A DNA stretch of 64,000 bases from Actinomycetes bacterium (GCA_024637115.1 JAGXFU010000014.1:6524-70523), one strand, 5' to 3'; shown: positions 36,878 through 56,691, counted from the stretch's first letter. Program-made: numbers and translations. The notes: generated by a model not told the origin, from the letters alone.

Positions 36878-38293
36878 TTACACCGCCCCCCTTTCTGCGA
36901 CGACCGTCCCGTCAGGATCGATCATCTCAACAACGAGCGGCATGCGACCAATCTCATGCGTCGCACAGCTGAGACACGGGTCATGCGCTCTGATGCCCAG
37001 CTCCATACGACGAACGGTTGCATCGGACATCGCCTCGTCCTTACCGGCAGAACGCACCGCTTCAAGAACGACTCCGTCAAGCGAGGCCACATTATGCGTG
37101 GTCGCAACGATGAGATTCGCGGCAGTGACGCGCCCGACGTCATCGGCCTCGTAGTGATGAATAAGCGTGCCCCGGGGTGCTTCGATCGAAGCGATTCCCG
37201 TTCCCGGACCGCGCTCCACCTTGACGCGCACGTTATCGGAGCAGATCTCGGGATCGGAAAGGATCGTTTCCATCTTTTCGTAGCAAGCGACCAGTTCGAT
37301 CATGCGAGCCCAGTGATAGGCGAGCACCGCATGAACCGGACGTCCAAGCTCTGAGCGGAAGGCCGCGAGCATCTCGCTCGAGACGGGCCCGGGCATAGAC
37401 TCAGCGAGGTTCAGTCGCGCCAGAGGACCAACGCGATACGATCCGCGCTCCGGTCCACGCGACGTGAGGAACGGTGACTTCGCATAGCTATAGGGCAGTA
37501 CGCGCTCGGTGATGCGATTCATGTAGTCCGAGGCATCGAAGCGATCTTCGATTCGTCCATCCTCGGCCATCACAGCGATTGAGCCGTCATAGAGCTCAAA
37601 CTCTCCGTTGGCTCCGAGTGTGGACATCAATGGCATTGGCGTACGGCCGTATCCGTCGTTCGCATCGAGTAGCCGGAGCGTAGACTCGCGTGCGAGATCG
37701 GCAGCCGCCACCGCATCAGACATGCCGTCGTGAACCATCTCAAGCATCTCGTCGCGCTGTTCGGCGGTGATGCCCTTGCTCATGCCGCCCGGTATCGCCG
37801 TGACCGGATGACTTGAACGTCCACCGACCATCTTGACGATGGTCTGCCCTGTCTTGCGCAGATGGATTGCTCGTGCAGCCAGGTCGGGACGCGCCTGGAT
37901 GACCCCAAGGATGTCCCGACTACCCGCGCCGTCACCGGTGAGGAAATCGGGTCCTGCGAGGAAGAAGAAGTGCAGCGCATGATCTTGCGACGTGGCACCG
38001 AGATGCATGAGTTCGCGAAGCAGTCGCGCAGCCCTCGGAATCTCGACGCCATACAGGGCGTCTACCGCCTTGACCGCTGCGAGATGGTGAGTCACCGGAC
38101 ACACGCCGCAGATGCGACTCGTGATGAGCGGCATCTCCCAAATCATCCGACCCTTGAGCATCTTCTCGAAACCACGGAACTCTGTGATATCGAAGTGGGC
38201 GTTCTCTACCTGGCCACTGTCATCGAGGAACAACGAGACTCGGCCATGGCCTTCGATACGTTTGACGGACGGGAGTCTGACGACCTCAGGCAT
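36878..38293 (-). CDS. mvhA: [NiFe]-hydrogenase large subunit, group 3c (MvhA-like)
   Basis: RIEGHG, EFRGFEK, L1 RICGVC, L2 DPCLSCATH plus a 25-aa cleavable tail, [11 protein letters not shown]. Confidence 0.88.
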
Positions 38294-39170
38294 CCTCATC
38301 ACCCCCATGGTCGTAGGCTTCTGGGAACACGGACACCGGCATCGAGAATCGATATCCGGTGCCGACTAGATCGTCAAGGAACATGATGGCTCCTGCCGGT
38401 AGCACCGCTGCAAGCGCATCGATCATCTTGGCACCCTGTTCAAAATCGTGACGGCTCGGGCCATGGCACCCGCGGCACGGAACGCCTGCACCCGTGCAGA
38501 GCGCGCCGCAACCTTCTCGGGTCATCGGCCCCATGCAGATGACGCCCTGTTCCAGGAAACACAGTGCCGGATCGATCTCATCAAGTTCCATGATCCCGTA
38601 CACGGCATCCGTGAGGAACTCCGCTGTCGGCTCGAGCAGTGCTCGCTTCTCGCGAGCGCACTCGTCGCACAAGTTGCGTCGAGGCAGATCCAAATCCCGC
38701 CCTTCGACCACGTTGGTCAGAGCCGAGATGATCGCCTCAGTCTCCGGCGCACAGCCAGGGATCGAGATATCGACCTCAACGACGTCAGAGAGCGCCTTGA
38801 CGCGACGGGTCAGCTTGGGCAGCCCTTCGCTGGGCTTGTCCTCACCGTAGACGTCTTCGAGCACTTCTCGCGTGGGATACAAGTTGCGCAGCCCACCGAT
38901 GCCTCCGAGAACCGCACAAGATCCCAACGCGATAAGTGTCTTGGATGCAGCGCGCGCGGCGAGCAGCTTTCGCTCGTCCATTTCAGTCGTGACAGCACCT
39001 TCCACGATAACGACATCACATTCAGTCAAGTCGTCCTCTGCGAGAATCGGAGAAGCGACCAACTCAACCTTGCCGAGGAGGTCTAGAAGGCCCTCGCCAG
39101 CGTCGAGCAGGGAAACGTAGCATCCCTCGCAGCCACCAAGAACGACGTGAGCCAATCTCGGTTTACTCAT
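38286..39170 (-). CDS. mvhG: [NiFe]-hydrogenase small subunit (MvhG-like)
   Basis: GCEGC, GSCA, PGCAP, CDEC, CFLEQG, CMGPMT, GCGALC, PCRGCHG. Confidence 0.88.
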
Positions 39171-40777
39171 TGCGGGCCTCCTTTCCCATTGTCGAAACTA
39201 CCGATACTGGTGAATACCTCATTGACCTGTTCAACGAATCTCTCGCCCTCGAATGGGGAGATATCGATGATTCGCAAACGCCCGTCGTCGATGTTGCGAG
39301 AACGAAGGACCGTGCGCAGCAGGTTGATTCGGCGATCCATGTCAAGATTGCCGATGAGATTGTGGCAGTGGCCCTCGCGGCACCTGAAAACGGTAACGCC
39401 GTCAAAGCCCTGCTTGAACGCCTCAAGCACATAAAGCGTATCGAGTCGTCCTCCACAGGGAATGCGGATCGGCAGGAATGAAGCCGGATACGATCCGTTG
39501 CCTGCCTGAACAGACACGCTCGCATGATCGCCTGCAGGATAACCACATCCGCCGCATAGGAATCCGACAACTTTGTCCCCGCCCTGCGTATCTACCTCCG
39601 CAAGCGTGCGAATGGCTCCAATGAGGTAGTCATGCGGTGAGTTCACGATATCCCGCGCACCCACAGGGCAGGAGACTACGCATTTCCCACAACCCCGGCA
39701 GCGACGAATATCCACATGGGACAGACCGTCCTCACCAATGCTGCAAGCTCCGAATGCGCATGTCTTTACGCACGATGCGCACCCACCGCAGAGCGTCTCA
39801 TCGACCTGCGAGACATCAACGAAGTGGACGGTCTTGGGTTGCGAGAGCTTCAACACAAGAGCGAGCGCCGCAGAATCGGCGGCTGACACCTTTGTTGCAA
39901 TCTCTTCTGAGGCCCCGCGAATCGGCACGACCATGATGCCCGAGTCGACTGTTTCGGCAGGATGCGTACTTGGATCAATGGATCGCGCACGACCCTGATC
40001 ATCGATGTCAACCTTGAAGTGCTGACGCAACTCCTCGATCCACCCCGGTTCATCGGGGCGCGCAAGCAGCAAGCCGCCCACTCTGAACATCGCACTGCCC
40101 GTTGGAGCAGCCAGAGTGACGGAGTAGTCTCCGAGCCATCCGCTGCCATCAGAGAGACGGGCATCATCCACAAACTCAGCATTCGGGTGACCCGATACGA
40201 ACGATACGGTCGCCTTGAGATTCGCGCTGTCCTGGACACTTCGAAGGCCGGCTCCCCTGTCGGCAACGACGACCTTATAGCCGAGTTGCAGGAGTCGCTG
40301 AGCGGCAACCATGCCCTCAGTCGTGGCGCCAAGGATCAGAACCGAATGCTTTGGGTCGGTCTCGATGCCCTCAACGACCGGTGCCAGCGTTGCCCGCAGA
40401 CTGGCAACCTGAATCAGGGCTCGTGCCTTCGAGGTGGCGCCCACCGGATCGTCTGCGTGCACCAAGGCGACCTGCTCAAGGACATTAGCCGCAATCACAC
40501 GATTCGGATTGAGCCCCGCGTCGATCAGTCTCTGCTTGAGGTGTTGCCCCGAAAGACTCCGGGTGTAGTGCTCGATGGAATGCCCCGCGAGTACCACAGC
40601 ATCGAGATCGGCGTCGGAGATATCGCGAATCATCCGTTCTTGAGCGGCAGGATCGAAGAAGTCTTCAAAGACCCTTACGACCGCCGCTGTCTCATCCATG
40701 CCCTCGATCGCGGCGTCAACATCGACGATACCGTCGAGCTGACCCGAGCACCGGGACACATACAGGCCTAGTGGCAC
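39167..40777 (-). CDS. Degenerate HdrA/QmoB-like scaffold fused to a 2x[4Fe-4S] ferredoxin and an MvhD [2Fe-2S] domain
   Basis: HdrA-like GLNPN, NVLEQVALVH and ATSKA; CGGCASCVKTC and CRGCGKCVVSC; MvhD GFLCGGC, RIPCGGR, CREGHCH. Confidence 0.8.
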   Translation of the reverse strand: MPLGLYVSRCSGQLDGIVDVDAAIEGMDETAAVVRVFEDFFDPAAQERMIRDISDADLDAVVLAGHSIEHYTRSLSGQHLKQRLIDAGLNPNRVIAANVLEQVALVHADDPVGATSKARALIQVASLRATLAPVVEGIETDPKHSVLILGATTEGMVAAQRLLQLGYKVVVADRGAGLRSVQDSANLKATVSFVSGHPNAEFVDDARLSDGSGWLGDYSVTLAAPTGSAMFRVGGLLLARPDEPGWIEELRQHFKVDIDDQGRARSIDPSTHPAETVDSGIMVVPIRGASEEIATKVSAADSAALALVLKLSQPKTVHFVDVSQVDETLCGGCASCVKTCAFGACSIGEDGLSHVDIRRCRGCGKCVVSCPVGARDIVNSPHDYLIGAIRTLAEVDTQGGDKVVGFLCGGCGYPAGDHASVSVQAGNGSYPASFLPIRIPCGGRLDTLYVLEAFKQGFDGVTVFRCREGHCHNLIGNLDMDRRINLLRTVLRSRNIDDGRLRIIDISPFEGERFVEQVNEVFTSIGSFDNGKGGPQ

Positions 40778-41033: not shown

Positions 41034-42086
41034 CTAGCCTTCAACGAGGCGGAGTATCTCCTCGGCAATGCCGTGGACAGGCAGAACGGTATCTACGCCG
41101 CCGAGATCCGCAGCTGCTTTAGGCATGCCCCAGACCGTAGAGGTCTTCTCATCCTGAGCGATCGTCGCGCCGCCGATGTCGTGCAGGTACTTCAGACCGC
41201 GCGCGCCGTCGGCGCCCATTCCCGTGAGGATGACCCCCACCGCACTGCGTCCGACAGAGCGGGCGACGCTCTCAAAGAGAGTGTCTGCCGACGGGATATA
41301 GAGCTGTCCCTCAAGCGGCTCGGTATGACGTATCGTGAGTCCATCCATGGAGAGATTGCGCCCCGTTGGCGCGAGATATGCCGCTCCGGGCTCCACATCC
41401 TGCCCGGGCTTGGCCTCACGCACAGAGATCTTGCATCCTGAGTCAAGCCAACTCACGAGGCCGGGCACAAAGCCATCAGCAATGTGCTGTGCGATCACGA
41501 TCGGTACCGGAAACTCCGGGGTCAACCTACCGAGGATCGCCAGCAGGGCCGAAGGCCCGCCTGTCGATGAGCCGATCGCGACCATCGAACGACCACCAAG
41601 GCGCGTTGGCCCTGTGGGAGTACCCAGAGTATGTGGAGATGGTTTGGGGCGCCTACCCGTGATGTGTGTGATTACACGAATCCGCGAGAGCACTTTGACC
41701 TTGCGGATGACTTCTTTTCCGATCGTTTCGAGATCCGCCCAATCGCGAGGCTCAGGTTTCTTGATGACTTCAAGCGCACCTCGCGCCAAAGCGTCGAACG
41801 CCCGTCCCATGCCTTCGCCATACACTGAGGACGAAACCACAAGAATCGGCGTGGGCGTGTACGCCATGATCTTCTCGGTGGCCTCGAGCCCGTCGACTTT
41901 GGGCATGTGGATATCCATAGTGACGAGATCGGGCCTCAACTGGGCAACGGCGTCGATTGCTTCCTGCCCATCTCGAACCATACCGACGACATCGATCTCA
42001 GGGTCGGTCGAGAGTATCTGGGCGAGCATCTCCCTGGCGACGAGGGAATCGTCGACTATGAGCACGCGAATCGTACGAGCAGACAT
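41034..42086 (-). CDS. cheB: Chemotaxis methylesterase CheB (REC + methylesterase)
   Basis: LIVDDS, TMDIHMP, GSSTGG, QHI, LTGMGADGA. Confidence 0.95.
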   Translation of the reverse strand: MSARTIRVLIVDDSLVAREMLAQILSTDPEIDVVGMVRDGQEAIDAVAQLRPDLVTMDIHMPKVDGLEATEKIMAYTPTPILVVSSSVYGEGMGRAFDALARGALEVIKKPEPRDWADLETIGKEVIRKVKVLSRIRVITHITGRRPKPSPHTLGTPTGPTRLGGRSMVAIGSSTGGPSALLAILGRLTPEFPVPIVIAQHIADGFVPGLVSWLDSGCKISVREAKPGQDVEPGAAYLAPTGRNLSMDGLTIRHTEPLEGQLYIPSADTLFESVARSVGRSAVGVILTGMGADGARGLKYLHDIGGATIAQDEKTSTVWGMPKAAADLGGVDTVLPVHGIAEEILRLVEG

Positions 42087-42100
42087 ATGGCTTCCCACCA

Positions 42101-44446
42101 CTAGCGGATGAGCCGCTCAACAGTATCAAGCAGCGTATCCTGATTGAAGACCGACTTGGTGATATACGCTTCGGCACCGGCCTCGATACCTTCGGCCTTT
42201 TCCTCATCTCGCTCAAGTGATGTGACAATGATGACCGGGATGTTCAGCAGCTGTGGGTCGTTCTTGATCGCGCGCGTAAGCTGGAACCCGGTCATATTGG
42301 GCATCTGTACGTCGGTGATCACCGCATCCGGCTCCAGGCCTTCACGGAGCTTCTGTAGACCCTGTGCCCCGTCCATGGCGACCTCGACTTCATAGCCCGC
42401 GGCCTCGAAAATGGACCTCTCGAGTTCTCTCGTGGTGAATGAGTCCTCGCAAATGAGGACTCTTCTGGGCCCGCTGCTCTCCTTCTCGGCAGTCATCTGA
42501 CCGTACGTGCGCTGGCCGGAACGATGACGGGCGTTGTCCATCAGGTCGGGCACATTGAGAATCGGCACCACCTCGCCGGCGCCGAGAATCGTGACTCCCG
42601 CCACGTTCACGACCTTGTGAAGATGCGACCCCAACGTCTTGATAACAATCTGTTGCTCACCCACGAGCGCATCGACAATGAAGCCCATTCGATGACCCGA
42701 GAAGCCAATAGTCGCTATGGGAATCTTGGCGCCCTCAAACCCGTGACCGGGCACGCCGAGGATATCGGTGAGTCGCACGAGAGGAACCGTTCTGCGCTGC
42801 CTGCGAATCACCTCGCGACCTTCGATCTTGATGATCTCTGAAGGATCCACCCTGAGGGTTTCCTCGACCGAAGCCGTTGGAAGTGCGTACATGCGATCGC
42901 CCACCCGGAGCATGAGCGCCCGAATGATTGCCAGCGTCAGAGGGATGGTGAGCCTGAACGTGGTTCCTTTGCCCATCTCACTCTGAACATCAAGAGAACC
43001 TTTGAGCTTCTCCACGATGAATTCGCGAACGACATCCATGCCCACGCCGCGACCCGATATCTCGGTGATGATCGCCGCAGTCGAGAAGCCCTTCTCAAAG
43101 ATCAGGTATGTGGCTTCCCTATCAGTCAGCGCGCTGGCCTCGGATTCAGAAATATAGCCCTTGCGCACCGCAGCTGCTCGAACCTTGTCCGGATCGATGC
43201 CCCGTCCGTCGTCGGAAATCTCAATGACGATGTGATCGCCCTCTTGACGCGCGGACATGCGAATCGTGCCCTTCGCCGGTTTGCCAAGCTCAACTCGGTC
43301 GGCGGCAGGCTCAAGTCCGTGATCTACCGCATTGCGCATGATGTGAACAAGGGGATCGTTGATCTCTTCGAGAACCTTCTTATCGAGCTCCGTGTCTCCA
43401 CCCTCAAGAACCAGCTCAACATCCTTCTTGAACGAGCGCGCAAGATCGCGCATCGCCCGGGGGAATGCCTGAAAGACCGTGGAGACAGGAAGCATGCGTA
43501 GCCGCATACCCTGCTCCTGAAGATCCGTCACAACGATCGAGGTTCTGGAGACGTCATCGTTGTAACCCTTAAGGAATCCGGTTTGAGCGCGCCTGCGGTC
43601 CACGAGGTATCCGTCGAGAGTGCTCACTTCATCCATGATCGAGAGCATCATGCCATCGTCATCAACGGGCACTGAATTCAGCAGCGACTTCAATCTAAGC
43701 CACGCTTGCCAGATATCGGTCAGATCATTGGCCGCCTGCCGCAGCTCGACCGTACGCTGCTCGTCCTTGATCTGAGCGATGACTACTTCGCTCACCAAGT
43801 TCAGAAGCGTGTCGATCTGCGCAGTCTTGACCCGGATCGTCGGCTGAACCTTCGCCTTGAGCGAATCCTCGCGTTGTGCCTGGCGAGATACGCCGTCACC
43901 GGAGGTCTCATCGTCGTGCACGTCCTCCAGGTCATCGACCGCTTCATCACCATCGTCGTATTCCTCGGAGGAATCAGACTCAGCCGGAGGTGCAGGTGCA
44001 GGCACAGCAGTCTCGGTCGCGACTGTCGTTTCAGGCGTACCGGCAGCGGCTTCTGCTCCACCCGCTGCCAGAGCAGACAAACGAGTCTGGAGCGCGTCGA
44101 GGTCGATCTCGAGCTTGATGTCTTTTCCGGCGTTCTCCGCCAGGTACACGATCGCGTCGAGCGCTTCAAAGAAGTAGTCGCTCATATCCGGCGTGTACTT
44201 CATCTCGCCTTCGCGCACGCGAATCATGAAGTCCTCAAGCCGATGTGCGATGTCAGATATCTCAATCAGACCGACCATACGGGAGGAGCCCTTGACCGTA
44301 TGTGCGTCGCGCATCATCTGATCGATGAGCTCTCGATTTCCCGGGTCCATCTCCAGTTGGATAACGCCTTCGTTCAGGCGCTGCAGAAGATCCTGCGCTT
44401 CCTCCTGAAACTTCCCAATAAACGCACTACGGTCGAACTCGACCAT
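42101..44446 (-). CDS. cheA: Hybrid CheA histidine kinase (Hpt-dimer-HATPase-CheW-REC)
   Basis: AHTVKGSSRM, HIMRNAVDHG, DDGRGID, GRGVGMDVV, CheW domain, C-terminal REC (TDVQMP). Confidence 0.95.
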   Translation of the reverse strand: MVEFDRSAFIGKFQEEAQDLLQRLNEGVIQLEMDPGNRELIDQMMRDAHTVKGSSRMVGLIEISDIAHRLEDFMIRVREGEMKYTPDMSDYFFEALDAIVYLAENAGKDIKLEIDLDALQTRLSALAAGGAEAAAGTPETTVATETAVPAPAPPAESDSSEEYDDGDEAVDDLEDVHDDETSGDGVSRQAQREDSLKAKVQPTIRVKTAQIDTLLNLVSEVVIAQIKDEQRTVELRQAANDLTDIWQAWLRLKSLLNSVPVDDDGMMLSIMDEVSTLDGYLVDRRRAQTGFLKGYNDDVSRTSIVVTDLQEQGMRLRMLPVSTVFQAFPRAMRDLARSFKKDVELVLEGGDTELDKKVLEEINDPLVHIMRNAVDHGLEPAADRVELGKPAKGTIRMSARQEGDHIVIEISDDGRGIDPDKVRAAAVRKGYISESEASALTDREATYLIFEKGFSTAAIITEISGRGVGMDVVREFIVEKLKGSLDVQSEMGKGTTFRLTIPLTLAIIRALMLRVGDRMYALPTASVEETLRVDPSEIIKIEGREVIRRQRRTVPLVRLTDILGVPGHGFEGAKIPIATIGFSGHRMGFIVDALVGEQQIVIKTLGSHLHKVVNVAGVTILGAGEVVPILNVPDLMDNARHRSGQRTYGQMTAEKESSGPRRVLICEDSFTTRELERSIFEAAGYEVEVAMDGAQGLQKLREGLEPDAVITDVQMPNMTGFQLTRAIKNDPQLLNIPVIIVTSLERDEEKAEGIEAGAEAYITKSVFNQDTLLDTVERLIR

Positions 44447-44476
44447 TGATGTACTCCTCCCGGCCGGGCACGCCGT

Positions 44477-45712
44477 CTAGTCGATGATTTGAAATGCGGA
44501 ACCGACCTGTGCCGATTCCTTTGCAATTGCAGACAGCTGCTCGGCTGAGCCTGCGACCTGTCGTCCGCCTGCAGCGGTCTGCTGGGCAACCGCAGCGACC
44601 TCTCGCATTGCTTTGACGACTTGATCCGTGGCGCTCTTTTGCTGCTGAGTCGCCGCAGAGATCTCTTTGGCAGCAACGGTAGTCTGTTCGATCATCTCAA
44701 GAATCTGGTCGAGAGACTCACCAGTCATGTGCGCGAGATCAACGCCGCCCTGTACCTGCTTGAGTTCTTGCTCGGTCGCGATGACAAGATCGTTCGCGGC
44801 ACCCTGAATCTCGATCATGATCGTCGAGATCTCGCTCGTAGAGTCAACCACTGACTCCGCAAGCTTTCTGATCTCGATAGCGACAACGGAGAAGCCCTTC
44901 CCGGCTTCTCCCGCGCGCGCGGCTTCGATAGCGGCATTGAGAGCGAGGATCTTTGTCTGATCGGCGATCGAGTTGATGATCTCCAGGACCTGACCGATCT
45001 GCTGACTACGCTCGCCGAGCGATAGGATCTTGTTCGCAGACGTCTGACTACGAGTCTTGATGTCTTCCATAGCGGTAAGGGTATTGAGTACCGCCTGCTG
45101 TCCCGATTCCGCACTACCGAGGGATGCCTCTGCCATGTTGACGACCTGGTTGGCATTGTCGGCAATCTGACGGTAGGTTGCTGCGAGCTCTTCCATCGTT
45201 GCCGTTGTCTGGCTGATCGATGCGGCCTGCTCGGCCGAGCCTGATGCTTGCTCCTCGGTGGCTGAGAGAATCTCGTTCGATGCCTGAGCGAGTCGCCTTG
45301 AAGACTCCTGGGTCTGCCTGATCAGATAGACGATGAGATCCAGCATCTGGTTGTACGACGTGGCAAGGACACCGAACTCGTCCTCGGACTTCACATTGAC
45401 CTTCAGACCGATCTCTCCCTGGCAGGCCGCCTTCACGCTCTCAACGACGTGCTCGAGCGGTGCCATGAAACGCTTGCCGACCTTGATGAAGGCCATCATC
45501 CAGGCGAAGCCGAGCACAATGATCGCAAGGACCAGAGCACCTACCTCGACAACTGAGACGTCCGCGAACGCAGAGCCGATATCCCCACCGGTAAGAATAA
45601 TCATGGCAATGGTCCACTGAAGGGCGTTGAACACAAGGAACAGCCCGGCGATTGCCAGTGAGTACTTCCACAGGAACTTGCTGCGGAACTTGCCGACTAT
45701 CGATGAAAACAT
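44477..45712 (-). CDS. Methyl-accepting chemotaxis protein (2 TM, tiny external loop, HAMP)
   Basis: [46 protein letters not shown] methylation sites. Confidence 0.93.
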
Positions 45713-45735
45713 TGTGCCCTCCTAGTGGCGGGGTG

Positions 45736-46293
45736 CTACGAATTTGCAACGATCGGTTCAAGAATCCGATCGATATTGACAAGACCAATCAGCCGACTCT
45801 CCCAGTACACAGAGCCAGCAATGAACTCAGCTGAGACTTTGTCCATCACCGAAAGTGGCGGCTCAACCCCCTCGCGTGGAATATCGAGGATGTCACCGAT
45901 TTCATCGACAACGATCGCAGTGGTGCACTCCTCATTCTGAATGACGATCGCAGGAGCTAGAGCGATGTCCGACGTGAGCTGGCCCAGACGCATGAGTTTC
46001 GCGACGTCCATCACGGAGATGATCTCTCCTCTGATGTTCACAACACCGAGAATGAACTCAGGCACGCACGGAATCGGAGTGATCGCGTACTCCTGATAGA
46101 TCTCTCGAACATCAGAGACGTAGACCGCGTACCACTCGTCACCCAGACGAAAGAGCAGGATGCCCACACTATCTCCGACGTCCTCGCCAGTAGCTTCATG
46201 GGCAAGGGAATCGGCCCTGCGGGCAAGCACCTCATCCGCAGTCGCCGCGATAGACGAACCGGGAACCAATCCACGTTCTACGATCTCCGCCAT
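45736..46293 (-). CDS. cheW: CheW adaptor
   Basis: LLFRLGDEWYA, ITPIPCVPEFILGVVNIRGEII. Confidence 0.92.
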   Translation of the reverse strand: MAEIVERGLVPGSSIAATADEVLARRADSLAHEATGEDVGDSVGILLFRLGDEWYAVYVSDVREIYQEYAITPIPCVPEFILGVVNIRGEIISVMDVAKLMRLGQLTSDIALAPAIVIQNEECTTAIVVDEIGDILDIPREGVEPPLSVMDKVSAEFIAGSVYWESRLIGLVNIDRILEPIVANS

Positions 46294-46296
46294 GAG

Positions 46297-47007
46297 CTAG
46301 TACCCTCCCCCGACGAGATTGATCGACGCAAGCAGCCGATCGACGTCGAGCAGATACACAAGCTGATTGTCCATTCGACACACACCGATCATACGATCCG
46401 CGAGTCCGTGCATCTTGGGCGGTGCCGCAAGACATCCCTCGGGTAGCCCGACCACATCCTCGACCTCGTCAACCAGAAGCGCGACGAGTTGGCCGTGCGA
46501 CCTGCAGATAATCATAGGTGTATCGAGATGATACTCCTGTGATGTCATACCGAGCAGTGTTCTGATGTCGAGCGCGGGGATGACCTGTCCGCGAAGATTG
46601 ATCATGCCAACGAGACCGTGTCCTGAAGATGGCACCTGAGAGAATGCCACAATCTGCTGGATCTCTTGAACGCTGTCAATGCCGATCGAGTAGCGCTGAT
46701 CCGCAAGATGAAAGACGATCATCTTGTCGATCATCGCTTCCATTGAATCCTCAACAGGTGACGGCGTGACGTTCTCCGCCCCCGCGACTTCAACAGGGAT
46801 AGCATCCTTCTGGGGTGCATCCACGGACACGGGCGCCTCCACGGTCTCTTGCGGGACTTCTTTGACAGGCTGAGCTTCCGCTGTCGCTTCTGATGCTGAC
46901 TTGGTCGCCTTCACTGGTTTCGGCTTCTTGCCGACCTTCTCTTTAGCCTTCGCCTTCTTGCCGGGCTTGGGCTTGGGCTCATCATCTGTCTTCTTGCGTG
47001 TCGCCAT
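46297..47007 (-). CDS. cheW: CheW adaptor with Lys-rich N-terminal extension
   Basis: FHLADQRYSI, GMINLRGQVIP; about 90-aa N-terminal low-complexity region. Confidence 0.88.
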   Translation of the reverse strand: MATRKKTDDEPKPKPGKKAKAKEKVGKKPKPVKATKSASEATAEAQPVKEVPQETVEAPVSVDAPQKDAIPVEVAGAENVTPSPVEDSMEAMIDKMIVFHLADQRYSIGIDSVQEIQQIVAFSQVPSSGHGLVGMINLRGQVIPALDIRTLLGMTSQEYHLDTPMIICRSHGQLVALLVDEVEDVVGLPEGCLAAPPKMHGLADRMIGVCRMDNQLVYLLDVDRLLASINLVGGGY

Positions 47008-47011
47008 TGAC

Positions 47012-48913
47012 TCACTCCGCGAATCTCAGTACGCGGTTGAGCTCTTCTGCACTCACGAGCCCCGACCTGACCTTTGCGAGACCTGAAGTCACCATCGGTC
47101 GCATGCCTGCCGCCTGTGCCGAGGCCGCGATCTCCTCGGCAGAATCGGCCCGTGAAATGCGTGTGCGAACCGATTCGGTGAACGGTAGGACTTCGAAGAT
47201 GCCCGTGGCACCCTGGAATCCAGACTGCGCGCACGTGGCGCATCCACGACCGACCTTGGAGACGAGGCCTTCCTCGGCACCGGGAATAGTTGCGGCCATG
47301 ACGCCATCGTCATCCGAGGTGCAGTGCGGACAGTTCATGCGTACAAGCCGCTGCCCCACGCCAAGCGTAAGTGCCGAGGAGAGAGAAACCGGCTCGGCAC
47401 CGAGATCGAGCATGCGACGCACGCCTGAGACGATGTCCCCACCGCTGAACGTCGCAATCACGAGCTTCCCAAGGCCAGCCGCTTCGACGGCCAGGTGAAC
47501 ATCCTCAACGGACTGCATCGCGTCGATCGCCATGACATCGGTATCCTGACGGATTCCGGCCGCGAAATACGACTCGGCGCCGACCGACTCACCCGGATTC
47601 ACCAACACCTGGGCTACAGCCGGAATCTCATAGTCGATCGAGCGCTCGACGGAGTAGACGGTCTTTCCAACTTTCGCGGCATGGTTGAGGAGCGCATAGT
47701 ACGTGGAGCTGCGTCCACCTGCAACCGGGCCGCATACCAGAAGGAGCCCACGCCCACGCTCGACCATCGCATGCAGTGCACGTACCTCGGCTTCGTTCAT
47801 ACCGAGCTCAGCAAGCCCGCGTGGGACAGGCTTGTCGGAGGTGAGCGTCAAGACCACACGCTGACCCGCAACGGTTGGAACCGCTGAGACGGTGACCACC
47901 AGATCGCGATCGGCGATCTTAGCTTTCACCCGACCAAGGGCAGGCCGAGAAGACTGCACCGAGGATAGACGCGCGTAGCTCTTGAATCCGTCAACGAGCG
48001 CCGACTGCATCGAGAGTGGAGCGCTGGCTATCTTCTCAAGTTTGCCGCCGACACGATAGACGAGGAAGAAGTCTTCCTTGTACGGCAGGAGGTGAATACG
48101 GCCGACGCCGCGTCGGACAGCATGGTCGAGAATCTCAGAAACGAGTCCGGCGACCTTGCGGGCATCGGCAACGGCAAGCACGTCGAGATCGATCTCTGGA
48201 GGTCCATCCGGCGCAGCGGTCTCAACGACTTCCTCGATACCCTGCGTGGGCTCGGGGAGATCAGGCGGTTCCTGGGCAGGTATCTGAGCCACTACGGGCG
48301 TTGACTCGGTCAGCGGGGCTTCAAAGAAGTCACCCGCGTCGATCTCGGTGTCGACTCCGAGGAAATCCTCCACACTCGGGGCCGGAGACAGAACATGTTC
48401 AGTCGATTCGGCGGTTTCGGGCATCGCTCCGACTTCGGGCTCAAATGCAGGAGCGGCCGGTACCGACTCTCCTGGAGCGTCTTCGTAGTACTGGTCGATC
48501 GCACGGGTGACGTCACCAGCATCAGAAAGGACTGCCTCGACCTCCAGACCGAGCTCAACGGCGAGGGAATCAAGCTTGAACACGTCCATCGCATCCCCGA
48601 TGACTACCGTGAGCATGCCCTCGATCTCAAAGAGCGGCAGCACACTTCTGCTCCTGGCAAGCGATACCGGAAGCAGGAGAAGCGCCTCGCTATCGGGCGC
48701 ATAGCTGGATAGGTCGACTCGAGGTATGCCCAGATCCTCTTCCATGGCACTCTCGAGATCCGCCGATGTGACGATGCCGCGCTGTAACAGGACATCGCCC
48801 ACAGTGATTCCAGCGCTCGCCGCCGCTTCGATGATCGAGGAGATTTGCTCGACCGTAAGCAAGCCGGCATTCACCAGCGCATCAAGAACCCTGGATGTGA
48901 TTGTTTCCGACAT
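47012..48913 (-). CDS. PilB/GspE-family protein with degenerate ATPase motifs (predicted pseudo-ATPase)
   Basis: T2SSE_N-like N-terminus, RQD, QRLVR, CPHC...CATC, GIFE; Walker A is GPVAGGRS. Confidence 0.85.
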   Translation of the reverse strand: MSETITSRVLDALVNAGLLTVEQISSIIEAAASAGITVGDVLLQRGIVTSADLESAMEEDLGIPRVDLSSYAPDSEALLLLPVSLARSRSVLPLFEIEGMLTVVIGDAMDVFKLDSLAVELGLEVEAVLSDAGDVTRAIDQYYEDAPGESVPAAPAFEPEVGAMPETAESTEHVLSPAPSVEDFLGVDTEIDAGDFFEAPLTESTPVVAQIPAQEPPDLPEPTQGIEEVVETAAPDGPPEIDLDVLAVADARKVAGLVSEILDHAVRRGVGRIHLLPYKEDFFLVYRVGGKLEKIASAPLSMQSALVDGFKSYARLSSVQSSRPALGRVKAKIADRDLVVTVSAVPTVAGQRVVLTLTSDKPVPRGLAELGMNEAEVRALHAMVERGRGLLLVCGPVAGGRSSTYYALLNHAAKVGKTVYSVERSIDYEIPAVAQVLVNPGESVGAESYFAAGIRQDTDVMAIDAMQSVEDVHLAVEAAGLGKLVIATFSGGDIVSGVRRMLDLGAEPVSLSSALTLGVGQRLVRMNCPHCTSDDDGVMAATIPGAEEGLVSKVGRGCATCAQSGFQGATGIFEVLPFTESVRTRISRADSAEEIAASAQAAGMRPMVTSGLAKVRSGLVSAEELNRVLRFAE

Positions 48914-48927
48914 GACGTCAGCCCGAT

Positions 48928-49308
48928 CTAGCCGGTGACCTTATCGAGCTCCTCGGCAACCGCCGATAGAAGCCTTTCAGGCTCGATCGGCTTAGTGAGG
49001 TACTGGTTGGCGCCGGTTCGGATACCCGTTGCCATTGCCTGCTCCTCGGTCTTAGCCGTGAGCATGATGATTGGAATTCCTTTGTACTTCTGGTCAAACT
49101 TGAGAAGACGGCACACTCGGTACCCGTCAAGTTTGGGGAGCATGACATCGAGCAGGATCAAGTCAGGCATCTCTGCCCGAGCCTTCTCCAACGCCTCGGC
49201 GCCGTCGGCAGCAGTGATGACCTCGTAGCCGCCCGATATCAAGATCGCCTTGATCATCTCAAGGATGGTCGGGCTGTCATCGACCGCAAGGATGCGCGCG
49301 TTCGCCAT
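48928..49308 (-). CDS. Single-domain response regulator (CheY-like)
   Basis: AVDDS, LLDVMLP, MLTA, YLTKP. Confidence 0.93.
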   Translation of the reverse strand: MANARILAVDDSPTILEMIKAILISGGYEVITAADGAEALEKARAEMPDLILLDVMLPKLDGYRVCRLLKFDQKYKGIPIIMLTAKTEEQAMATGIRTGANQYLTKPIEPERLLSAVAEELDKVTG

Positions 49309-49347
49309 ACCGTAACTCCCCTCTGCATCATGTGCACCTACCGGTAT

Positions 49348-50916
49348 CTATCGCCTTTCCGGCGGGGCATCTTTAGGTCGTAAACTGCCCTTTCGACACT
49401 CTATCAGACTACGCTCGCAGGTCTTAGCCAAAAGGTCGGGTCTGAACCCGCCCAGAAACACCGTCCACTCGCCCTCGGGATTCTCGTACAAGTAGCGCAT
49501 CGTATTCTCATATTCACGGCATGCGCTGTCCTCGGCACCCTGGTGTTTATAGAGGTTCGCCAGAGAGAAATGTGCAAGGACGAACGCGGGGTCGATGTAG
49601 ATCGTCTTCTTGAGCTCCGAGATGGCTCGAACCGAGTCACCTTGCTGCTGGTAGATGATACCGAGCACATAGCGAGCCGCAGGCAGAAGCGGCTCGATTG
49701 CGAGCGCCCGTTGACACTCGGCGATCGCGGCATCCATCTGCCCGCTGTCCGCATGGGCGAACGCCGTAAGCAGGTACGCCTGTGGGTTGTTCGAATCGAG
49801 TTCCAAGACGGCCGAAGCGGCCTCGAGAACCGCTGCCGTGCGACCATCCACAGACGCCTCCCGCGCGGCACGCAGGAGTGATTCGATTTCGCCCGCCACG
49901 TCACCGGCCGATTCGGACGGAATGAGTACGGGTTGTGGTTTATCGACACCCGGAGGCAACACAGGGCGTCGAGGTTCTGTACGCTTTCTGGCACGCCTGC
50001 GCGCAGCCGCCGCCGGCGTGGTCTCCCGCATCGAGACCGCCTCGGCAAAGTTGTAGTGCTTCTTTGGGAATGGTTTTCGATAGAGGAATACGCCCCCGAC
50101 CTCAACGGCCTCGAATCTGTCCGAGATGCTGGTGAGCGTCTCGGAGTGACCGATGAACAGATAGCCACCCGGATTGAGACTGTCGAAGAAGTTGTTGACC
50201 ACGCGTCGCGTTGATTCCAGGCGAAAGTAGATCGTGACGTTGCGGCAGAAGATCACATCCCAATTCCCCATGAGCGCGAGCGGATATGGCTCCTTGATGA
50301 GATTCTGGTACTGAAAGGTCGTGAGCTTGCGTACCTTGTCGACAACTCGGTGTCCGTGAGCGGTGGGCTCAAAGAACCGCGTTGACGAGGAGGTGGGAAC
50401 GCTCAGGAGCCCCCGAGCCGGATAGACACCGGCTTTGGCCTTGAGCAGCGCATTCGTTGACACATCTGTGCCCAGCACCTCGAGCTTGTACCCAAACGGC
50501 TCCAGGCCGGAGTCCAACAGCGTCATCGCGATCGAATAGGGCTCCTCGCCAGTCGAACAACCCGCCGACCAGACACGGAAGTGACGATCGTATTCGCCTT
50601 TGCTTTCCATGATCTGAGGAATGATCTGCGTGCGAAGCGCCTCAAACTGTGCGGGGAATCGAAAGAAGCTCGTCTCGTTGATCGTGACGAGGTTCATAAG
50701 CTCTTTGAATTCCTCTTCATCTGACGTGAGCATCGCGAAGTAGTCAGCAAGAGAGTCGAATCCAAACCGCGTTGCGCGCGTGATGAGCGAAATCCTGAGC
50801 GAATCGGATTTCTGCTCCTCCAGGAAGATGCCAGAATGCTTATGTATGTAGTCCCTGAATCGACCGAACTCCTCGGGAGTAAGGTCTTTAGAGAGGCTTT
50901 CGCCGTTTCCGGGCAT
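49348..50916 (-). CDS. cheR: CheR methyltransferase with C-terminal TPR repeats (WspC/FrzF-like)
   Basis: INETSFFR, WSAGCSTGEEPYS, FCRNVTIYF, TPR helices. Confidence 0.93.
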   Translation of the reverse strand: MPGNGESLSKDLTPEEFGRFRDYIHKHSGIFLEEQKSDSLRISLITRATRFGFDSLADYFAMLTSDEEEFKELMNLVTINETSFFRFPAQFEALRTQIIPQIMESKGEYDRHFRVWSAGCSTGEEPYSIAMTLLDSGLEPFGYKLEVLGTDVSTNALLKAKAGVYPARGLLSVPTSSSTRFFEPTAHGHRVVDKVRKLTTFQYQNLIKEPYPLALMGNWDVIFCRNVTIYFRLESTRRVVNNFFDSLNPGGYLFIGHSETLTSISDRFEAVEVGGVFLYRKPFPKKHYNFAEAVSMRETTPAAAARRRARKRTEPRRPVLPPGVDKPQPVLIPSESAGDVAGEIESLLRAAREASVDGRTAAVLEAASAVLELDSNNPQAYLLTAFAHADSGQMDAAIAECQRALAIEPLLPAARYVLGIIYQQQGDSVRAISELKKTIYIDPAFVLAHFSLANLYKHQGAEDSACREYENTMRYLYENPEGEWTVFLGGFRPDLLAKTCERSLIECRKGSLRPKDAPPERR

Positions 50917-50927
50917 GTCGCCCCCCG

Positions 50928-51677
50928 CTATTCCGCGATCGAGACTTCGTCGGATGCACCGAGCTTCTCAATCAAACCAGCCGCAAACATCCCGTAGAGG
51001 ATTCTGGCTGTCTCAAAATCGTTGTAGCCGGTCAACTCAACGAGCTCACGGACAGTCCTGCCACCGTGCAGGAAACACAAGAGCATCCACTCTTTGGGCT
51101 TCAGATGAATCTCCATGGACTTGTCGCCGGGGGCAGAGGCCATGATAAAACGTGTATCCATGGAGGGAATCTTCTGACGGATTCGATTCCACAGTTCAAG
51201 GCGACGAGCCGCCTCCATGATGATGTTCTCAACAGATACCGAGATGCCGATGTCCTCGTCTTCACACGCCTCATCGGCCTCGAAACGCAGCTCCCCCTCT
51301 TCCCAGCGAAAGAGATCGAACAGCGTGTCATTGATCTGCTCCTGAATGAAGTTCTCAAGTACTTTTGAATCGAGATAGCCCTCGTCGACAAGAATCTGAC
51401 CCAGCCGGCGATTGGCCTTTTCCTTCTTCTGAATCTTTTGCAGACCCAGTGCCTGACGCAACTGCTTCTCGGAGATGACGCCCGCCTTGACCAGGCGACG
51501 CCCAAGCGACTCCCGGTTCCAGTTGCTCGACGCAAAGAACACTCGGCCCTTCTTGATGCAGACCTTGCCTTCGGCATCCGGGCGCTCCATGTACAGCGTG
51601 CCGGTCTTGCGACCGGAAGAAAGCAGCCGAAACATGTCTTCGAGCGAAAAGTCCCTGAGATTGCCCTCGAGTGCCAC
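50928..51677 (-). CDS. DUF4388 (PATAN-like) protein with internal MshEN-like tandem motif
   Basis: LEGNLRDFSLEDMFRLL, KTGTL, LFRWEEGELRF; SLGRRLVKAGVI...ALGLQ and RLGQILVDEGYL...IQEQ. Confidence 0.85.
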   Translation of the reverse strand: MALEGNLRDFSLEDMFRLLSSGRKTGTLYMERPDAEGKVCIKKGRVFFASSNWNRESLGRRLVKAGVISEKQLRQALGLQKIQKKEKANRRLGQILVDEGYLDSKVLENFIQEQINDTLFDLFRWEEGELRFEADEACEDEDIGISVSVENIIMEAARRLELWNRIRQKIPSMDTRFIMASAPGDKSMEIHLKPKEWMLLCFLHGGRTVRELVELTGYNDFETARILYGMFAAGLIEKLGASDEVSIAE

Positions 51678-53046: not shown

Positions 53047-53463
53047 TCACCGTGTCGCCACCACGCGAACGTCCGAGATTCGTGCCGCCAGACCCGTCTC
53101 AGGATCACCGGCGGCAAAGCCAAGCAAGAGCGGCCAAAACCCCAGGGATGAAGTTGCCGCCCACACGAACGCATGCGCGACACCAAGGCGCTTCTCTGAA
53201 AGGCCCAGTTCAAGAAGAAACATCGTAGGCGTGCGACCCCACGCCATGGCGAACACGGAGAGATAAAGCACATGCGTGACCACAACAGTTCCGACAATGG
53301 ATGCAACGAACACAGGAATCGGCAGTAGCTGACGCACCACCGGAAACGGAAATGCGAGCACCGCCAGCAAGAATGCGACGGCGAAATCGGAGATTGCTGA
53401 ATTCCTGACACGACGACGATCGGCGGGACCCACAGGAGTGAATTCGGACGGGCCTGCCATCAC
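53047..53463 (-). CDS. Small membrane protein (RDD-like)
   Basis: Three to four hydrophobic segments, WGRTP motif; overlaps its neighbours as if co-transcribed. Confidence 0.55.
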   Translation of the reverse strand: MMAGPSEFTPVGPADRRRVRNSAISDFAVAFLLAVLAFPFPVVRQLLPIPVFVASIVGTVVVTHVLYLSVFAMAWGRTPTMFLLELGLSEKRLGVAHAFVWAATSSLGFWPLLLGFAAGDPETGLAARISDVRVVATR

Positions 53464-54356
53464 TCACCACCTTCTTCTGAGACTCCCGGACGCGCCGCTC
53501 CAAGGGCAGAGAGCAGTTCAGACACTTCTCGTGCGGTCGAGAGGCCGCCATCATCGCACAGCAGGAATCCTCCGCGTTGTGCGCGTATCGCAGCCAGAGA
53601 ACCTGCCTGTAGCGCGGCTGGTCCGCCCTCGCGAACAGCGTCGCCGGAAATCCCACCGAGCACTGAGAGTCCCAGATTGTTGGCATGCGCGCAGAATCGA
53701 TCGAATCCACTGTCAGGTAGTCCGCCGGAATGAACGGCTACGAAACCTGCCCGTCGGGCCCCAGTGAGAAGCGCGCGAGTATCCCCATCCGTATGCCAGA
53801 TGGAGAGAAGTCCTTCCTCGGCAGCCGTGTCCACGATCGTCTGCAGCAGAGGGAACACGACGTCCGTCGCATGATCGGGCGCGATGAGCATGCCTTCTGC
53901 TCCCGCAAGATCTTCGGCCACCACGATTGCGGTGACCTGAAGGCGGGCTCCGCGACGGACGTACTCGGCAAGGTGCGGCAATTCCGCTCGCATGTCCTGC
54001 TTCAAAGCCTCTGGATCGCGCGCCGTTCGCCGCAGTGTCTCGGACCATCCATCTCGGGCTGCCACCACACCTAAAGGACCCGGGACTACCCATAGAACCG
54101 CTCCACCGGCCGCCGCGACTCGATCGGAGGCTTCGTCTGCCCATATCTCCCACGCAGGCACGAACACGAAGTCGAGGTCTGCCTGGTCAACGAGTGCCGC
54201 GAGCAGTCGGGGCATATCGTGCGCCACGCTCCATCTCAGGCCCGCCAGAGCATCGTGATCGAGGAATGTCGCCCCAAAAGGCACACTCGGTCCTCCGACC
54301 AGAGCATCGTGCACACGACTCTCCGCTTCTGTTCGTGCCAGATCAGCGCGTGCCAT
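53460..54356 (-). CDS. Uroporphyrinogen decarboxylase/MtbA-fold protein of unknown function
   Basis: AEDLAG..GMLIAP, VFPLL, IWHTDGD, VLGGI; SD GAGG before ATG 54356. Confidence 0.7.
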   Translation of the reverse strand: MARADLARTEAESRVHDALVGGPSVPFGATFLDHDALAGLRWSVAHDMPRLLAALVDQADLDFVFVPAWEIWADEASDRVAAAGGAVLWVVPGPLGVVAARDGWSETLRRTARDPEALKQDMRAELPHLAEYVRRGARLQVTAIVVAEDLAGAEGMLIAPDHATDVVFPLLQTIVDTAAEEGLLSIWHTDGDTRALLTGARRAGFVAVHSGGLPDSGFDRFCAHANNLGLSVLGGISGDAVREGGPAALQAGSLAAIRAQRGGFLLCDDGGLSTAREVSELLSALGAARPGVSEEGGE

Positions 54357-54432
54357 GTCCTCAAAAGGCGAGTCGAATACATCGCACGCGCCGAGTTCCG
54401 AATCGAAGATGTCGCGATCAGCGAACATCGAT

Positions 54433-54978: not shown

Positions 54979-56691
54979 TCACAATCCAGTGGTGGCGCCT
55001 CCGAGATCTCGGATCAATGCCGCGAGATCAGATGAGGGAACCTGCAAATGGTACCCCTGGCCAAGTTCAAAACCGGCGTTACGTACCCGCTCAAGAAGCC
55101 CGGCGTCTTCGACCCATGAGGCTACTGCGACGTGACCCTGAGACTCGATAAGGCCGCGCACGGCTTCAACGAACGTGGCGCTCTCACCGTCAACCGAAAG
55201 AGCTGTGATAATGGAGCCGTCAAGCTTTACCTGATCGAACGGCAGCTCCCGAAGCAGTCCGAACAGACCCAGGCCTGCACCGAATTCATCAAGCACGAAA
55301 CTACACCCCAGCCTTCCGAGGCGATCGATCCAGTTTCGGGCGGAGGCCAAATTGCCCACCACGGCTGACTCCGACATCTCGAAGACGAGTCGGGATGGAT
55401 CGACCCCCTGCCTTCGTAGTTCTTCATCTACGTAGCGCGGGAGCGAATCATCTGCGAGGTCACCATGCGACAGGTTGATGGAGAGCGCCGCGCCCTCGTT
55501 GTCAGACAGCGAGCGAATTGCCATTCCAATGACGAGACGGGTGAGTCGCGGCATGAGCCCGAGTCGCTCGGCAGTGGGCAGGAACTCGGCCGGCATAATC
55601 ACATCGCCGCTTGGCGAAAGCATCCGGACGAGCACCTCATAGTACGCAACGCGGTGATCCGACAGACGAATGACGGGCTGATAGTGAAGAACGAACTGCT
55701 TGTCGGCGAGCGCCTCACGCAAGCGCCCTATGATGCGGTCGGCATCGCCGTCATCTTTGGCATCTTGCGAGTCAAGAATGCAGACTTGGTTGCGGCCTCG
55801 CTCTTTTGCCTGATACATGGCCACATCGGCCAAGTCAAAGACCGCGCGCGCCTCAAGCGCTCCATCAACAAGTACCAATCCTGCGGATATCCCAAGGCCG
55901 ATCTCTCGCGACCGCGTCACGAATTCCTCCTCGGTCGCTGCCCGACGCATTCGCTCGGCGACGCTCTCAGCCTCAGGAAGATCAGTCTGCTCAAAGAGCA
56001 CGGCGAACTCATCTCCGCCAATGCGAGCAAGCAGGTCTCCGGAGCGCACATGCTGGCGGAGAAGCAGCGAGAAGTTGACTAACGCCTGATCGCCAGCCAG
56101 ATGACCGAGCGAGTCGTTGTACGACTTGAAGTTATCGACATCGAGCATGAGGAGTACCGCCGGGGTTCCGCGTCGCGCACGCGACACCGCCCGAGAAAGC
56201 GACGATTCGAACATCCGACGGTTTGGCAGACCGGTGAGCGAATCATGTGTGGCCATATACGCGAGTTGCTCTTCGCGCTGCCTGCGCTCGGTCAGATCGA
56301 GACACATCCCGACAAGACCGTCGAAATCTCCGGCTTCGGTGTGAAACGGACTCGTAAAACAGACGAACCAGCGATATTGTCCGTCGGCACGTCGCAACTG
56401 GAATTCGGTTTGGAAGGGCTGGTGCCGCACCACGGCATCCTTGATGATTCGCTGAAGCTGTGTCCGATCCTCAGGAAGCACCCGGCCAAGAAGGTCAGCG
56501 TCCTCGTCGTCCACATGCGGAGCACCTGTGAACTCACGCCATGCGCCGTTGACGAACACGAGCTCCCCGCGCCAATCGGTCATCCATGCAAGCAACGGAA
56601 GACCGTCAAGGAACCGATGTAGGGAGTCTATGAACTCTCCGACGCCGGAGAGTTCCGGCGCGTTTTGTACCTCATCGTCCGATCCGAACAT
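54979..56691 (-). CDS. PAS-GGDEF-EAL protein (intact cyclase, degenerate EAL)
   Basis: PAS/PAC, DSLTGLPNRR, RSGD I-site, GGDEF; EAL domain EVLVR, DEFGAG, ASWVE. Confidence 0.92.
   Translation of the reverse strand: MFGSDDEVQNAPELSGVGEFIDSLHRFLDGLPLLAWMTDWRGELVFVNGAWREFTGAPHVDDEDADLLGRVLPEDRTQLQRIIKDAVVRHQPFQTEFQLRRADGQYRWFVCFTSPFHTEAGDFDGLVGMCLDLTERRQREEQLAYMATHDSLTGLPNRRMFESSLSRAVSRARRGTPAVLLMLDVDNFKSYNDSLGHLAGDQALVNFSLLLRQHVRSGDLLARIGGDEFAVLFEQTDLPEAESVAERMRRAATEEEFVTRSREIGLGISAGLVLVDGALEARAVFDLADVAMYQAKERGRNQVCILDSQDAKDDGDADRIIGRLREALADKQFVLHYQPVIRLSDHRVAYYEVLVRMLSPSGDVIMPAEFLPTAERLGLMPRLTRLVIGMAIRSLSDNEGAALSINLSHGDLADDSLPRYVDEELRRQGVDPSRLVFEMSESAVVGNLASARNWIDRLGRLGCSFVLDEFGAGLGLFGLLRELPFDQVKLDGSIITALSVDGESATFVEAVRGLIESQGHVAVASWVEDAGLLERVRNAGFELGQGYHLQVPSSDLAALIRDLGGATTGL

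Follow-up and report, generated by a model that had tools for sequence, protein, structure and literature searches.

What does a chemosensory operon control in a bacterium without flagella, and why are genes related to those of a pilus locus placed among its che genes? These questions are raised by nine genes at positions 41034-51677 of a 64,000-nucleotide stretch of DNA (hereafter the window) from an Actinomycetes bacterium (GCA_024637115.1, JAGXFU010000014.1:6524-70523), the host being an uncultured anaerobic actinobacterium of the order Anaerosomatales (formerly OPB41). The genes form one operon and are numbered g1 to g9 in the direction of transcription: a PATAN (DUF4388) protein, a CheR methyltransferase, a receiver (REC), a PilB-like protein, two CheW adaptors, a methyl-accepting chemotaxis protein (MCP), a CheA-REC hybrid kinase and a CheB methylesterase. 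The gene content, the intact residues of the Che proteins, the order-wide loss of ATPase motifs from g4, the cyclic di-GMP (c-di-GMP)-type motif of g1, the paralogy of g1 and g4 with genes of the pilus locus, the presence of pilus genes and the lack of flagella are observed directly. The explanation that we favour, to which we would give a little over an even chance, is a pathway resembling Frz, Pil-Chp or Tax that controls type IV pili, with g3, g1 and g4 as its output module.

An earlier reading of this DNA, made by a model from the sequence alone (hereafter the sequence-only reading), had called g4 a dead pilus ATPase, and this is borne out. The protein belongs to the PilB/GspE family, with 205.9 bits against the Pfam T2SSE model (PF00437; cut-off 24.9), and scores 281 bits against the NCBIfam PilB equivalog, the cut-off of which is 676. 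It is built from an MshEN-like N-terminus, a variable acidic and Pro-rich linker, an N2D domain, a degenerate ATPase core and an intact tetracysteine zinc site, in which both CxxC pairs are kept (CxxC...CxxC). Motifs were called by alignment with three canonical MshEN-T2SSE paralogues of the same genome, which retain every ATPase motif. In g4 the Walker A, Asp box, Walker B and His box are all altered (Table 1), the Asp box reading VERSID, and the arginine fingers are gone. All 20 orthologues compared, which represent about 20 families of the order, show the same losses, as do about 70 species of a species collection, where the Walker A position is occupied by R, A, G or S and never by K.

The loss of every catalytic motif might be taken for the decay of a pseudogene carried in an otherwise ordinary che operon. 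However, this explanation is effectively refuted by conservation, and we give it next to no weight. Of about 90 loci from across the order, nearly all have an uninterrupted reading frame, and the few broken copies sit in loci of metagenome-assembled genomes whose neighbouring genes are fragmented too. Orthologues share 43-78% identity, and the degenerate core (residues 381-520) is the best conserved region of the protein, with a mean identity to the window residue of 0.78 versus 0.32 in the linker. Moreover, the substituted residues are conserved among the orthologues themselves (GGRS, ERSI[DE], GKLVIATF). Since the former ATPase core is the most conserved part, g4 is, as judged from its sequence, a maintained pseudo-enzyme and not a decaying gene.

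Orthologues of g4 were found in 39 of the 41 genomes sampled from the order. Whether the gene order recurs elsewhere had been left as a question by the sequence-only reading, which would have been undermined if the PilB-like and DUF4388 genes were not kept with the che genes. The nine-gene order is identical in all 20 loci that were fetched, from about 20 families of the order. In the species-collection scan it was seen again in 73 of 73 actinobacterial loci, over the length covered by each contig, and in every case examined the PilB-like and DUF4388 genes accompany the che genes. Beyond the order, Ca. Geothermocultor quzhuomuensis and at least two further lineages have a variant cassette, arranged as PATAN, small GTPase, CheR, REC, PilB-like, CheW, CheW, MCP, CheA, CheB. 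These sister lineages surfaced only through a PATAN search and the species-collection scan, as the g4 search of 200 genomes of the rest of the phylum gave only generic PilB homologues of about 30% identity. The non-actinobacterial matches of the scan, considered as candidate pseudo-ATPases, were rejected as canonical PilBs. Of three variant PilB-like proteins examined, two keep the Walker A Lys; the Walker B Glu is kept, and the Asp box and His box are lost. Since the copies of the sister lineages are less degenerate, their sequences suggest a stepwise decay of PilB after recruitment into the che operon.

The second added component, g1, matches DUF4388 (PF14332) with an E-value of 8e-34 and 116.7 bits, versus a cut-off of 25. 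It has no receiver domain, the receiver being a separate gene two positions downstream, and so does not have the PatA-type PATAN-REC arrangement. Together with g3, it is the most conserved protein of the cassette (median identity 84% for g1 and 91% for g3, versus 50-76% for the other seven genes), its identity across the order ranging from 80 to 97%. Within g1, a stretch matches the 24-residue tandem c-di-GMP motif of MshE published by Wang et al. (PMC5013675), with motif I SLGRRLVKAGVISEKQLRQALGLQ at residues 57-80 and motif II RLGQILVDEGYLDSKVLENFIQEQ at residues 91-114. Motif II is perfect, but motif I deviates solely at position 1 (Ser57 for Arg), and the spacer between the motifs has 10 residues versus 5 in MshE.

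The sequence-only reading had labelled g1 DUF4388-MshEN, which holds for the tandem motif and not for the Pfam MshEN model, as the latter gives no match in g1. When the motif stretch was searched against PDB sequences, MshE-N (5HTL) ranked first (phmmer E 7.9e-7), and g1 scores 47.6 bits against NCBIfam NF053729, a 53-residue domain model with a cut-off of 38. Foldseek with the AlphaFold model of g1 (mean pLDDT 67, about 80 across the MshEN_N part) returned as its best two matches 5htl_B (MshE) and 9glg_B (Thermus PilF GSPII-B), both of them c-di-GMP-bound, with a root-mean-square deviation of 1.5-1.8 A over about 60 columns (1.5 A over 61 for 5htl_B). Because phmmer, the curated NCBIfam model and the structure comparison agree, the insertion is, on profile and model evidence, an MshEN_N module. 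As in MshE and PilF (5HTL, 9GLG), residues 57-114 fit the tandem motif and the four-helix fold; unlike there, the module is inserted in a PATAN protein instead of heading an ATPase. Foldseek with the PATAN core and the C-terminal helical domain of g1 gave no credible match; the C-terminal third (residues ~165-249) is a small helical, winged-helix-like domain in the model. The tandem motif occurs also in the wider PATAN family of the phylum. Han et al. have noted that some DUF4388 proteins bear a GspE_N annotation (10.1101/2021.06.11.447907); an equation of the PATAN helical insertion with MshEN_N was not found in the literature that could be searched.

The N-terminus of g4 reaches only 31.8 bits against NF053729, below the cut-off of 38, and a relaxed c-di-GMP motif had no match in the N-termini of any of 21 orthologues. 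Because the MshEN-like N-terminus of g4 does not fit the motif, any c-di-GMP input to the operon would come via the PATAN protein.

The third candidate output component, g3, carries the residues DD10-11, D54, T84 and K106, and its identity across the order is 80-95%. Within the genome, the paralogue closest to it is the receiver of a REC-REC-MshEN-T2SSE fusion on contig C13 (254705-257206), an 833-residue protein with two receivers that has an intact Walker A but changes in Walker B (GEIEE) and in the His box. Beyond the cassette, the proteins most similar to g3 (55-58% identity) are receivers whose genes immediately precede canonical pilB-pilC. Such receivers were found in Margulisiibacteriota, Saganbacteria, WOR-1 and Omnitrophota (loci L191, L199, L201, L202, L204 and L210), the identity dropping to 45-49% in Omnitrophota and one Saganbacteria locus. 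The gene fusion and the conserved adjacency suggest that the receiver family of g3 acts directly on PilB-type proteins.

The remaining proteins make up a complete core: an MCP signalling domain, CheW, a CheA with HPt His, kinase and CheW-like domains, and a receiver are all present. The phospho-sites of g8 (HPt His49 and REC Asp712), the Ser, His and Asp motifs of the CheB g9 and the S-adenosylmethionine motif of the CheR g2 are found in the sequences. The Pfam domains (hybrid CheA-REC, two CheW, CheR with tetratricopeptide repeats (TPR), CheB) agree with the core of Wsp or Frz type recognized by the sequence-only reading. The MCP g7 has, from hydropathy and Pfam, two predicted transmembrane helices joined by a loop of about 10 residues and followed by HAMP, and no ligand-binding or sensory domain. 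Thus, the surface sensing that had been proposed finds no evidence in the receptor. Its signalling domain is of 40-heptad length, equal to Pseudomonas 40H receptors; the 36-heptad receptors of E. coli are shorter by about 29-32 residues. With respect to the Wuichet-Zhulin class scheme (10.1101/2022.05.07.491037), the architecture (CheA-REC) and the 40-heptad receptor length are consistent with either the alternative cellular function (ACF) or the type IV pili (Tfp) class. The first CheW, g5, has an N-terminal extension of about 90 residues, consisting of a basic patch followed by a variable acidic Pro/Ala-rich linker; many of its orthologues start with M-x-PRKK, a short basic patch.

If the pathway controls pili, its target has to be encoded elsewhere. 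FlhA was not found in any of the 41 order genomes, and PilM was found in 34 of them. The genome of the window contains a full pilus locus, split over the ends of contigs C5 (1-4727) and C16 (216249-230799), and in a relative with a closed contig, Coriobacteriaceae bacterium EMTCatB1, the locus is contiguous, consisting of aroE, PilB2, Roadblock/LC7, PATAN, a small Ras-like GTPase, PilB, PilT, PilC, PilD, pilin-like genes, PilM, PilN and PilO. Upstream of pilB-pilT-pilC, the pilus locus carries a second intact PilB (PilB2), the Roadblock/LC7 protein, a long PATAN protein and the GTPase. Other families of the phylum also have the Roadblock-PATAN-GTPase-PilB module in their pilus loci, PilB2 being included in two of six loci, and the PilB2-Roadblock-PATAN-GTPase set looks like a pilus-associated polarity module in Actinomycetota. 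In two cultured Anaerosomatales, which are non-motile rods, many pilus-like appendages were described, forming solely on ferrihydrite in one strain (PMC9686372); che genes are not discussed in that paper.

Phylogenies tie the operon to this locus. The che-linked PATANs group together with support (96/89), and their clade branches from within the pilus-locus PATANs. Because of this nesting, the operon PATAN gene is, by the phylogeny, a pilus-locus duplicate recruited into the che operon; the GTPase of the sister variant is probably a duplicate of a pilus-locus gene as well. In the T2SSE tree, a single clade (94/94) within the PilB family unites the che-linked PilB-like proteins; it has a long stem, and the tree did not resolve its exact sister group. 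An output through the dead PilB, if there is one, would seem to have arisen by duplication of the PilB2-Roadblock-PATAN-GTPase polarity module of the actinobacterial pilus locus. With both extra proteins paralogous to proteins of the organism's own pilus locus, and with no flagella, the link to a type IV pilus machine is better grounded than it was in that reading.

Several known systems resemble the operon in part. In Myxococcus, a pilus polarity module is known to be under Frz-type control; the Frz system there comprises FrzA, FrzB, FrzCD, FrzE, FrzF and FrzG, and FrzX and FrzZ act on the MglA/MglB polarity module. Frz of Myxococcus xanthus shares with the operon two CheW-type proteins, one MCP, a CheA-REC, a CheB and a TPR-bearing CheR, and CheW, CheW, MCP and CheA-REC follow one another in the same sub-order. 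A small Ras-like GTPase and a Roadblock/LC7 protein are found at the target in both cases (here in the pilus locus), and the sister lineages have a GTPase copy inside the che operon. Unlike the cytoplasmic, transmembrane-free FrzCD, however, the receptor here is membrane-anchored with HAMP, the cassette has a PATAN protein and a pseudo-PilB but no FrzZ-type double receiver (no REC-REC gene was found in it with Pfam), and the host is a Gram-positive actinobacterium without gliding machinery. Because the pilus-locus GTPase matches general small-GTPase models only, it may resemble the actinobacterial conservon type more closely than MglA. Wsp of Pseudomonas, with a hybrid CheA-REC, two CheW, CheR, CheB and a membrane MCP, has a non-flagellar function, and both this core content and the non-flagellar function are shared with the operon. 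The output of Wsp is the receiver-GGDEF protein WspR, whereas no cyclase is encoded in the operon according to Pfam. Also in Pseudomonas, c-di-GMP is linked to PilB through FimX.

A close analogy is offered by the cyanobacterial Tax1/Pix systems (PATAN-REC regulators PixG/PixE/TaxP, CheY PixH, CheW, MCP PixJ, CheA-REC PixL), in which a PATAN protein and a separate CheY-like receiver head the operon and are followed by CheW, MCP and CheA-REC, and in which PATAN regulators bind the pilus extension ATPase PilB1 (10.1101/2021.06.11.447907; PMC11181946). The operon differs in that its PATAN protein is not fused to a receiver and has a well-preserved MshE-type c-di-GMP motif, its receptor lacks a photosensory domain, both CheR and CheB are encoded, and a dedicated dead PilB paralogue is included. 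Pil-Chp (PilG, PilH, PilI, PilJ, PilK, ChpA, ChpB, ChpC) governs where the pilus extension and retraction ATPases act (PMC10519157; PMC13599512). It has likewise two CheW-type adaptors, CheR, CheB, a hybrid kinase and single-domain receivers, but ChpA has many Hpt domains, and neither a PATAN protein nor a pseudo-ATPase belongs to it. The proposal of a candidate new chemosensory system therefore needs to be narrowed. No paper describing the content of this cassette was found in the literature that could be searched, and to that extent it is not an already characterised class; at the same time, its parts and its logic are known. Since both the wiring of PATAN to PilB in Tax/Pix and the control of pilus polarity by Frz have precedents, it is not a wholly new system.

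From family knowledge, the MCP, the two CheW proteins and CheA-REC would form a signalling array, with adaptation by methylation given by CheR-TPR and CheB, and CheA would phosphorylate the receiver g3. From the genomic context, g3 would act on PilB-type proteins, g1 would be an adaptor that binds PilB-type ATPases, like the cyanobacterial PATAN regulators, and that may sense c-di-GMP by its inserted module, and g4, presumably unable to hydrolyse ATP, would be a non-catalytic stand-in for the motor. It could compete with PilB or PilB2 for the PilC/PilM platform, or make mixed or inactive rings. The target would be the type IV pilus machine, the genes of which lie in another part of the genome, and phosphorylation and c-di-GMP together would decide where or whether pili extend. 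A more specific form of this scheme is that the dead PilB is the dedicated end-point of the pathway, the phosphorylated receiver and the c-di-GMP-loaded PATAN protein loading it on, or unloading it from, the platform or the rings as a clutch or brake; this we put forward as a tentative possibility only. The dependence on c-di-GMP and the localisation or regulation output were overstated in the sequence-only reading, since both are inferences.

Several observations weigh against pilus control. The operon neither contains nor adjoins a pilus structural gene, and in EMTCatB1 the pilus locus is about 680 kb away from the cassette. Two genomes that are 94-98% complete (G210 and G228) carry the cassette and have no PilM match, which reflects either an assembly gap or a cassette kept without that pilus gene. 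A second che cluster exists in the genome (see below) and could be the pilus controller instead. The model of g1 is of moderate quality only (pLDDT 67), and c-di-GMP binding by g1 is not assured, because a Ser replaces the guanine-stacking Arg and the spacer has 10 residues in place of 5. Every protein-protein step in the scheme is drawn by analogy. Also, the whole chromosomal region is syntenic within the order, so that conservation of gene order within it is weak evidence by itself, and it is the loci outside the order that carry weight.

Two other explanations were considered. Signalling might run in reverse, the PATAN protein and the pseudo-PilB being input or positioning parts that anchor the array to the base of the pilus or inform it about the state of the motor; this would amount to mechanosensing as proposed for Pil-Chp, and the true output would be g3 or CheA-REC acting on another target. 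An MCP without ligand-binding domain implies a signal from the membrane or the cell interior, the g4 gene sits between those of the receiver and of the two CheW proteins, the long N-terminal extension of g5 could tether partners, and Pil-Chp is reported to sense pilus activity (PMC10519157). Nevertheless, we consider this direction quite unlikely: there is no evidence of T2SSE proteins binding MCP, CheW or CheA, the PATAN regulators of cyanobacteria act downstream of CheA (10.1101/2021.06.11.447907), and the pairing of REC and pilB genes suits an output role better. Alternatively, the operon might serve a cellular function other than pili, such as secretion, matrix or biofilm formation, control of the neighbouring hydrogenase or a response to redox state, with the pseudo-PilB just a scaffold for c-di-GMP or receiver binding that has abandoned its pilus ancestry. 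We regard this as unlikely, even though Wsp and Frz, which are ACF-type systems, have a similar core content, a long distance separates the operon from the pilus locus, PilM gave no match in a few of the genomes that have the cassette, some 14 GGDEF/EAL proteins are encoded in the genome, and hydrogenase genes adjoin the cassette in 13 of 20 order loci and, on its other side, in Ca. Geothermocultor. Within the order, the hydrogenase adjacency is explained by general synteny. Moreover, by the trees both extra genes are recent paralogues of pilus-locus genes, the sister variant has in addition a copy of the pilus-locus small GTPase, and among the Pfam domains of the operon there is neither an output enzyme nor a DNA-binding domain. 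Control of type IV pili remains the explanation that we favour.

The nine genes lie at the coordinates given by the sequence-only reading, and their Pfam domains agree with its description. The nine open reading frames are co-oriented on the minus strand, with spacings from a one-base overlap up to 39 nt. A 256-nt gap separates the last of them from the downstream hydrogenase genes, and a YkuD (L,D-transpeptidase) gene diverges from the operon 173 nt upstream. A scan for promoters and terminators gave counts at the level of shuffled sequence and no information on the operon boundaries. The annotated part of the window (28.9-64 kb) showed neither flagellar genes nor structural genes of pili, in line with the earlier statement that the window holds no flagellar or pilin genes.

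Table 1. Coordinates of the operon genes, of motifs and regions within them, and of neighbouring genes, counted in the window.
Feature	Position	Strand	Description	Basis
g1	50928..51677	minus	stand-alone PATAN/DUF4388 protein, 249 aa, with predicted inserted MshEN_N-type module and C-terminal helical domain	Pfam
g1 tandem MshE-type c-di-GMP motif	51336..51509	minus	residues 57-114	regex match to published motif
g1 C-terminal third	50928-51200		winged-helix-like domain	AlphaFold model
g2	49348..50916	minus	CheR methyltransferase with C-terminal TPR, 522 aa	Pfam CheR_N, CheR, TPR
g3	48928..49308	minus	single-domain receiver, 126 aa	Pfam REC
g4	47012..48913	minus	PilB/GspE-family pseudo-ATPase, 633 aa	Pfam MshEN, T2SSE
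g4 degenerate Walker A	47708..47731	minus	GPVAGGRS, Lys replaced by Arg	alignment with paralogues
g4 degenerate Walker B and His box	47438..47527	minus	IDAMQS without the catalytic Glu; LGKLVIATFSGG without both His	alignment with paralogues
g5	46297..47007	minus	CheW with N-terminal extension	Pfam CheW
g5 N-terminal extension	46730-47007		basic patch and linker	
g6	45736..46293	minus	second CheW, 185 aa	Pfam CheW
g7	44477..45712	minus	MCP, 411 aa	Pfam HAMP, MCPsignal
g8	42101..44446	minus	hybrid CheA-REC, 781 aa	Pfam Hpt, H-kinase_dim, HATPase_c, CheW, REC
g9	41034..42101	minus	CheB	Pfam REC, CheB methylesterase
Hydrogenase genes	36878-40777		MvhD fusion, NiFe hydrogenase small and large subunits	
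322-aa protein	53460-54428		no Pfam match	
PAS-GGDEF-EAL protein	54979-56691			

The hydrogenase genes directly downstream of the cassette are of the Mvh type, and their adjacency in the order fits general synteny; in Ca. Geothermocultor, outside the order, the hydrogenase genes lie directly upstream of the cassette. The 322-aa protein encoded upstream is found within about 4 kb upstream in 13 of 16 extended order loci, directly beside the cassette in about half of those. A PAS-GGDEF-EAL gene lies 3.3 kb upstream of the cassette, in a genome with about 14 GGDEF/EAL proteins in 2.3 Mb. Its functional linkage to the cassette was considered and rejected, as it is present in 6 of the 16 extended loci and only within a syntenic block made up of RNase R, M42, SmpB, GGDEF-EAL, a small exporter, the 322-aa protein and the cassette. 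The second che cluster (contig C1, 27719-47006) encodes CheR, MCP, CheW, CheY, CheB, CheA, a CheC-like protein, a CheD-like protein and a GGDEF protein, with a PilT-like ATPase and another MCP near it; its CheA type is found in about 30 of the 41 order genomes.

Chemosensory control of type IV pili has so far been understood in a few Gram-negative models, namely Pil-Chp, Frz and the cyanobacterial Tax systems. If the reading that we favour is true, such control would extend to a widespread, mostly uncultured subsurface lineage of Gram-positive Actinomycetota, and a catalytically dead motor paralogue would serve as a signalling part. To our knowledge, signalling through a non-working copy of a motor would be an output principle that has not been described for any chemosensory system. 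The REC-pilB gene pairs and the REC-T2SSE fusions would then be traces of an ancient partnership between receivers and PilB. Likewise, if the helical insertion of PATAN is an MshE-type module, PATAN proteins would be a large and overlooked set of candidate c-di-GMP receptors. For the organisms themselves, the system may bear on attachment to minerals, as the appendages of one cultured strain form solely on ferrihydrite (PMC9686372).

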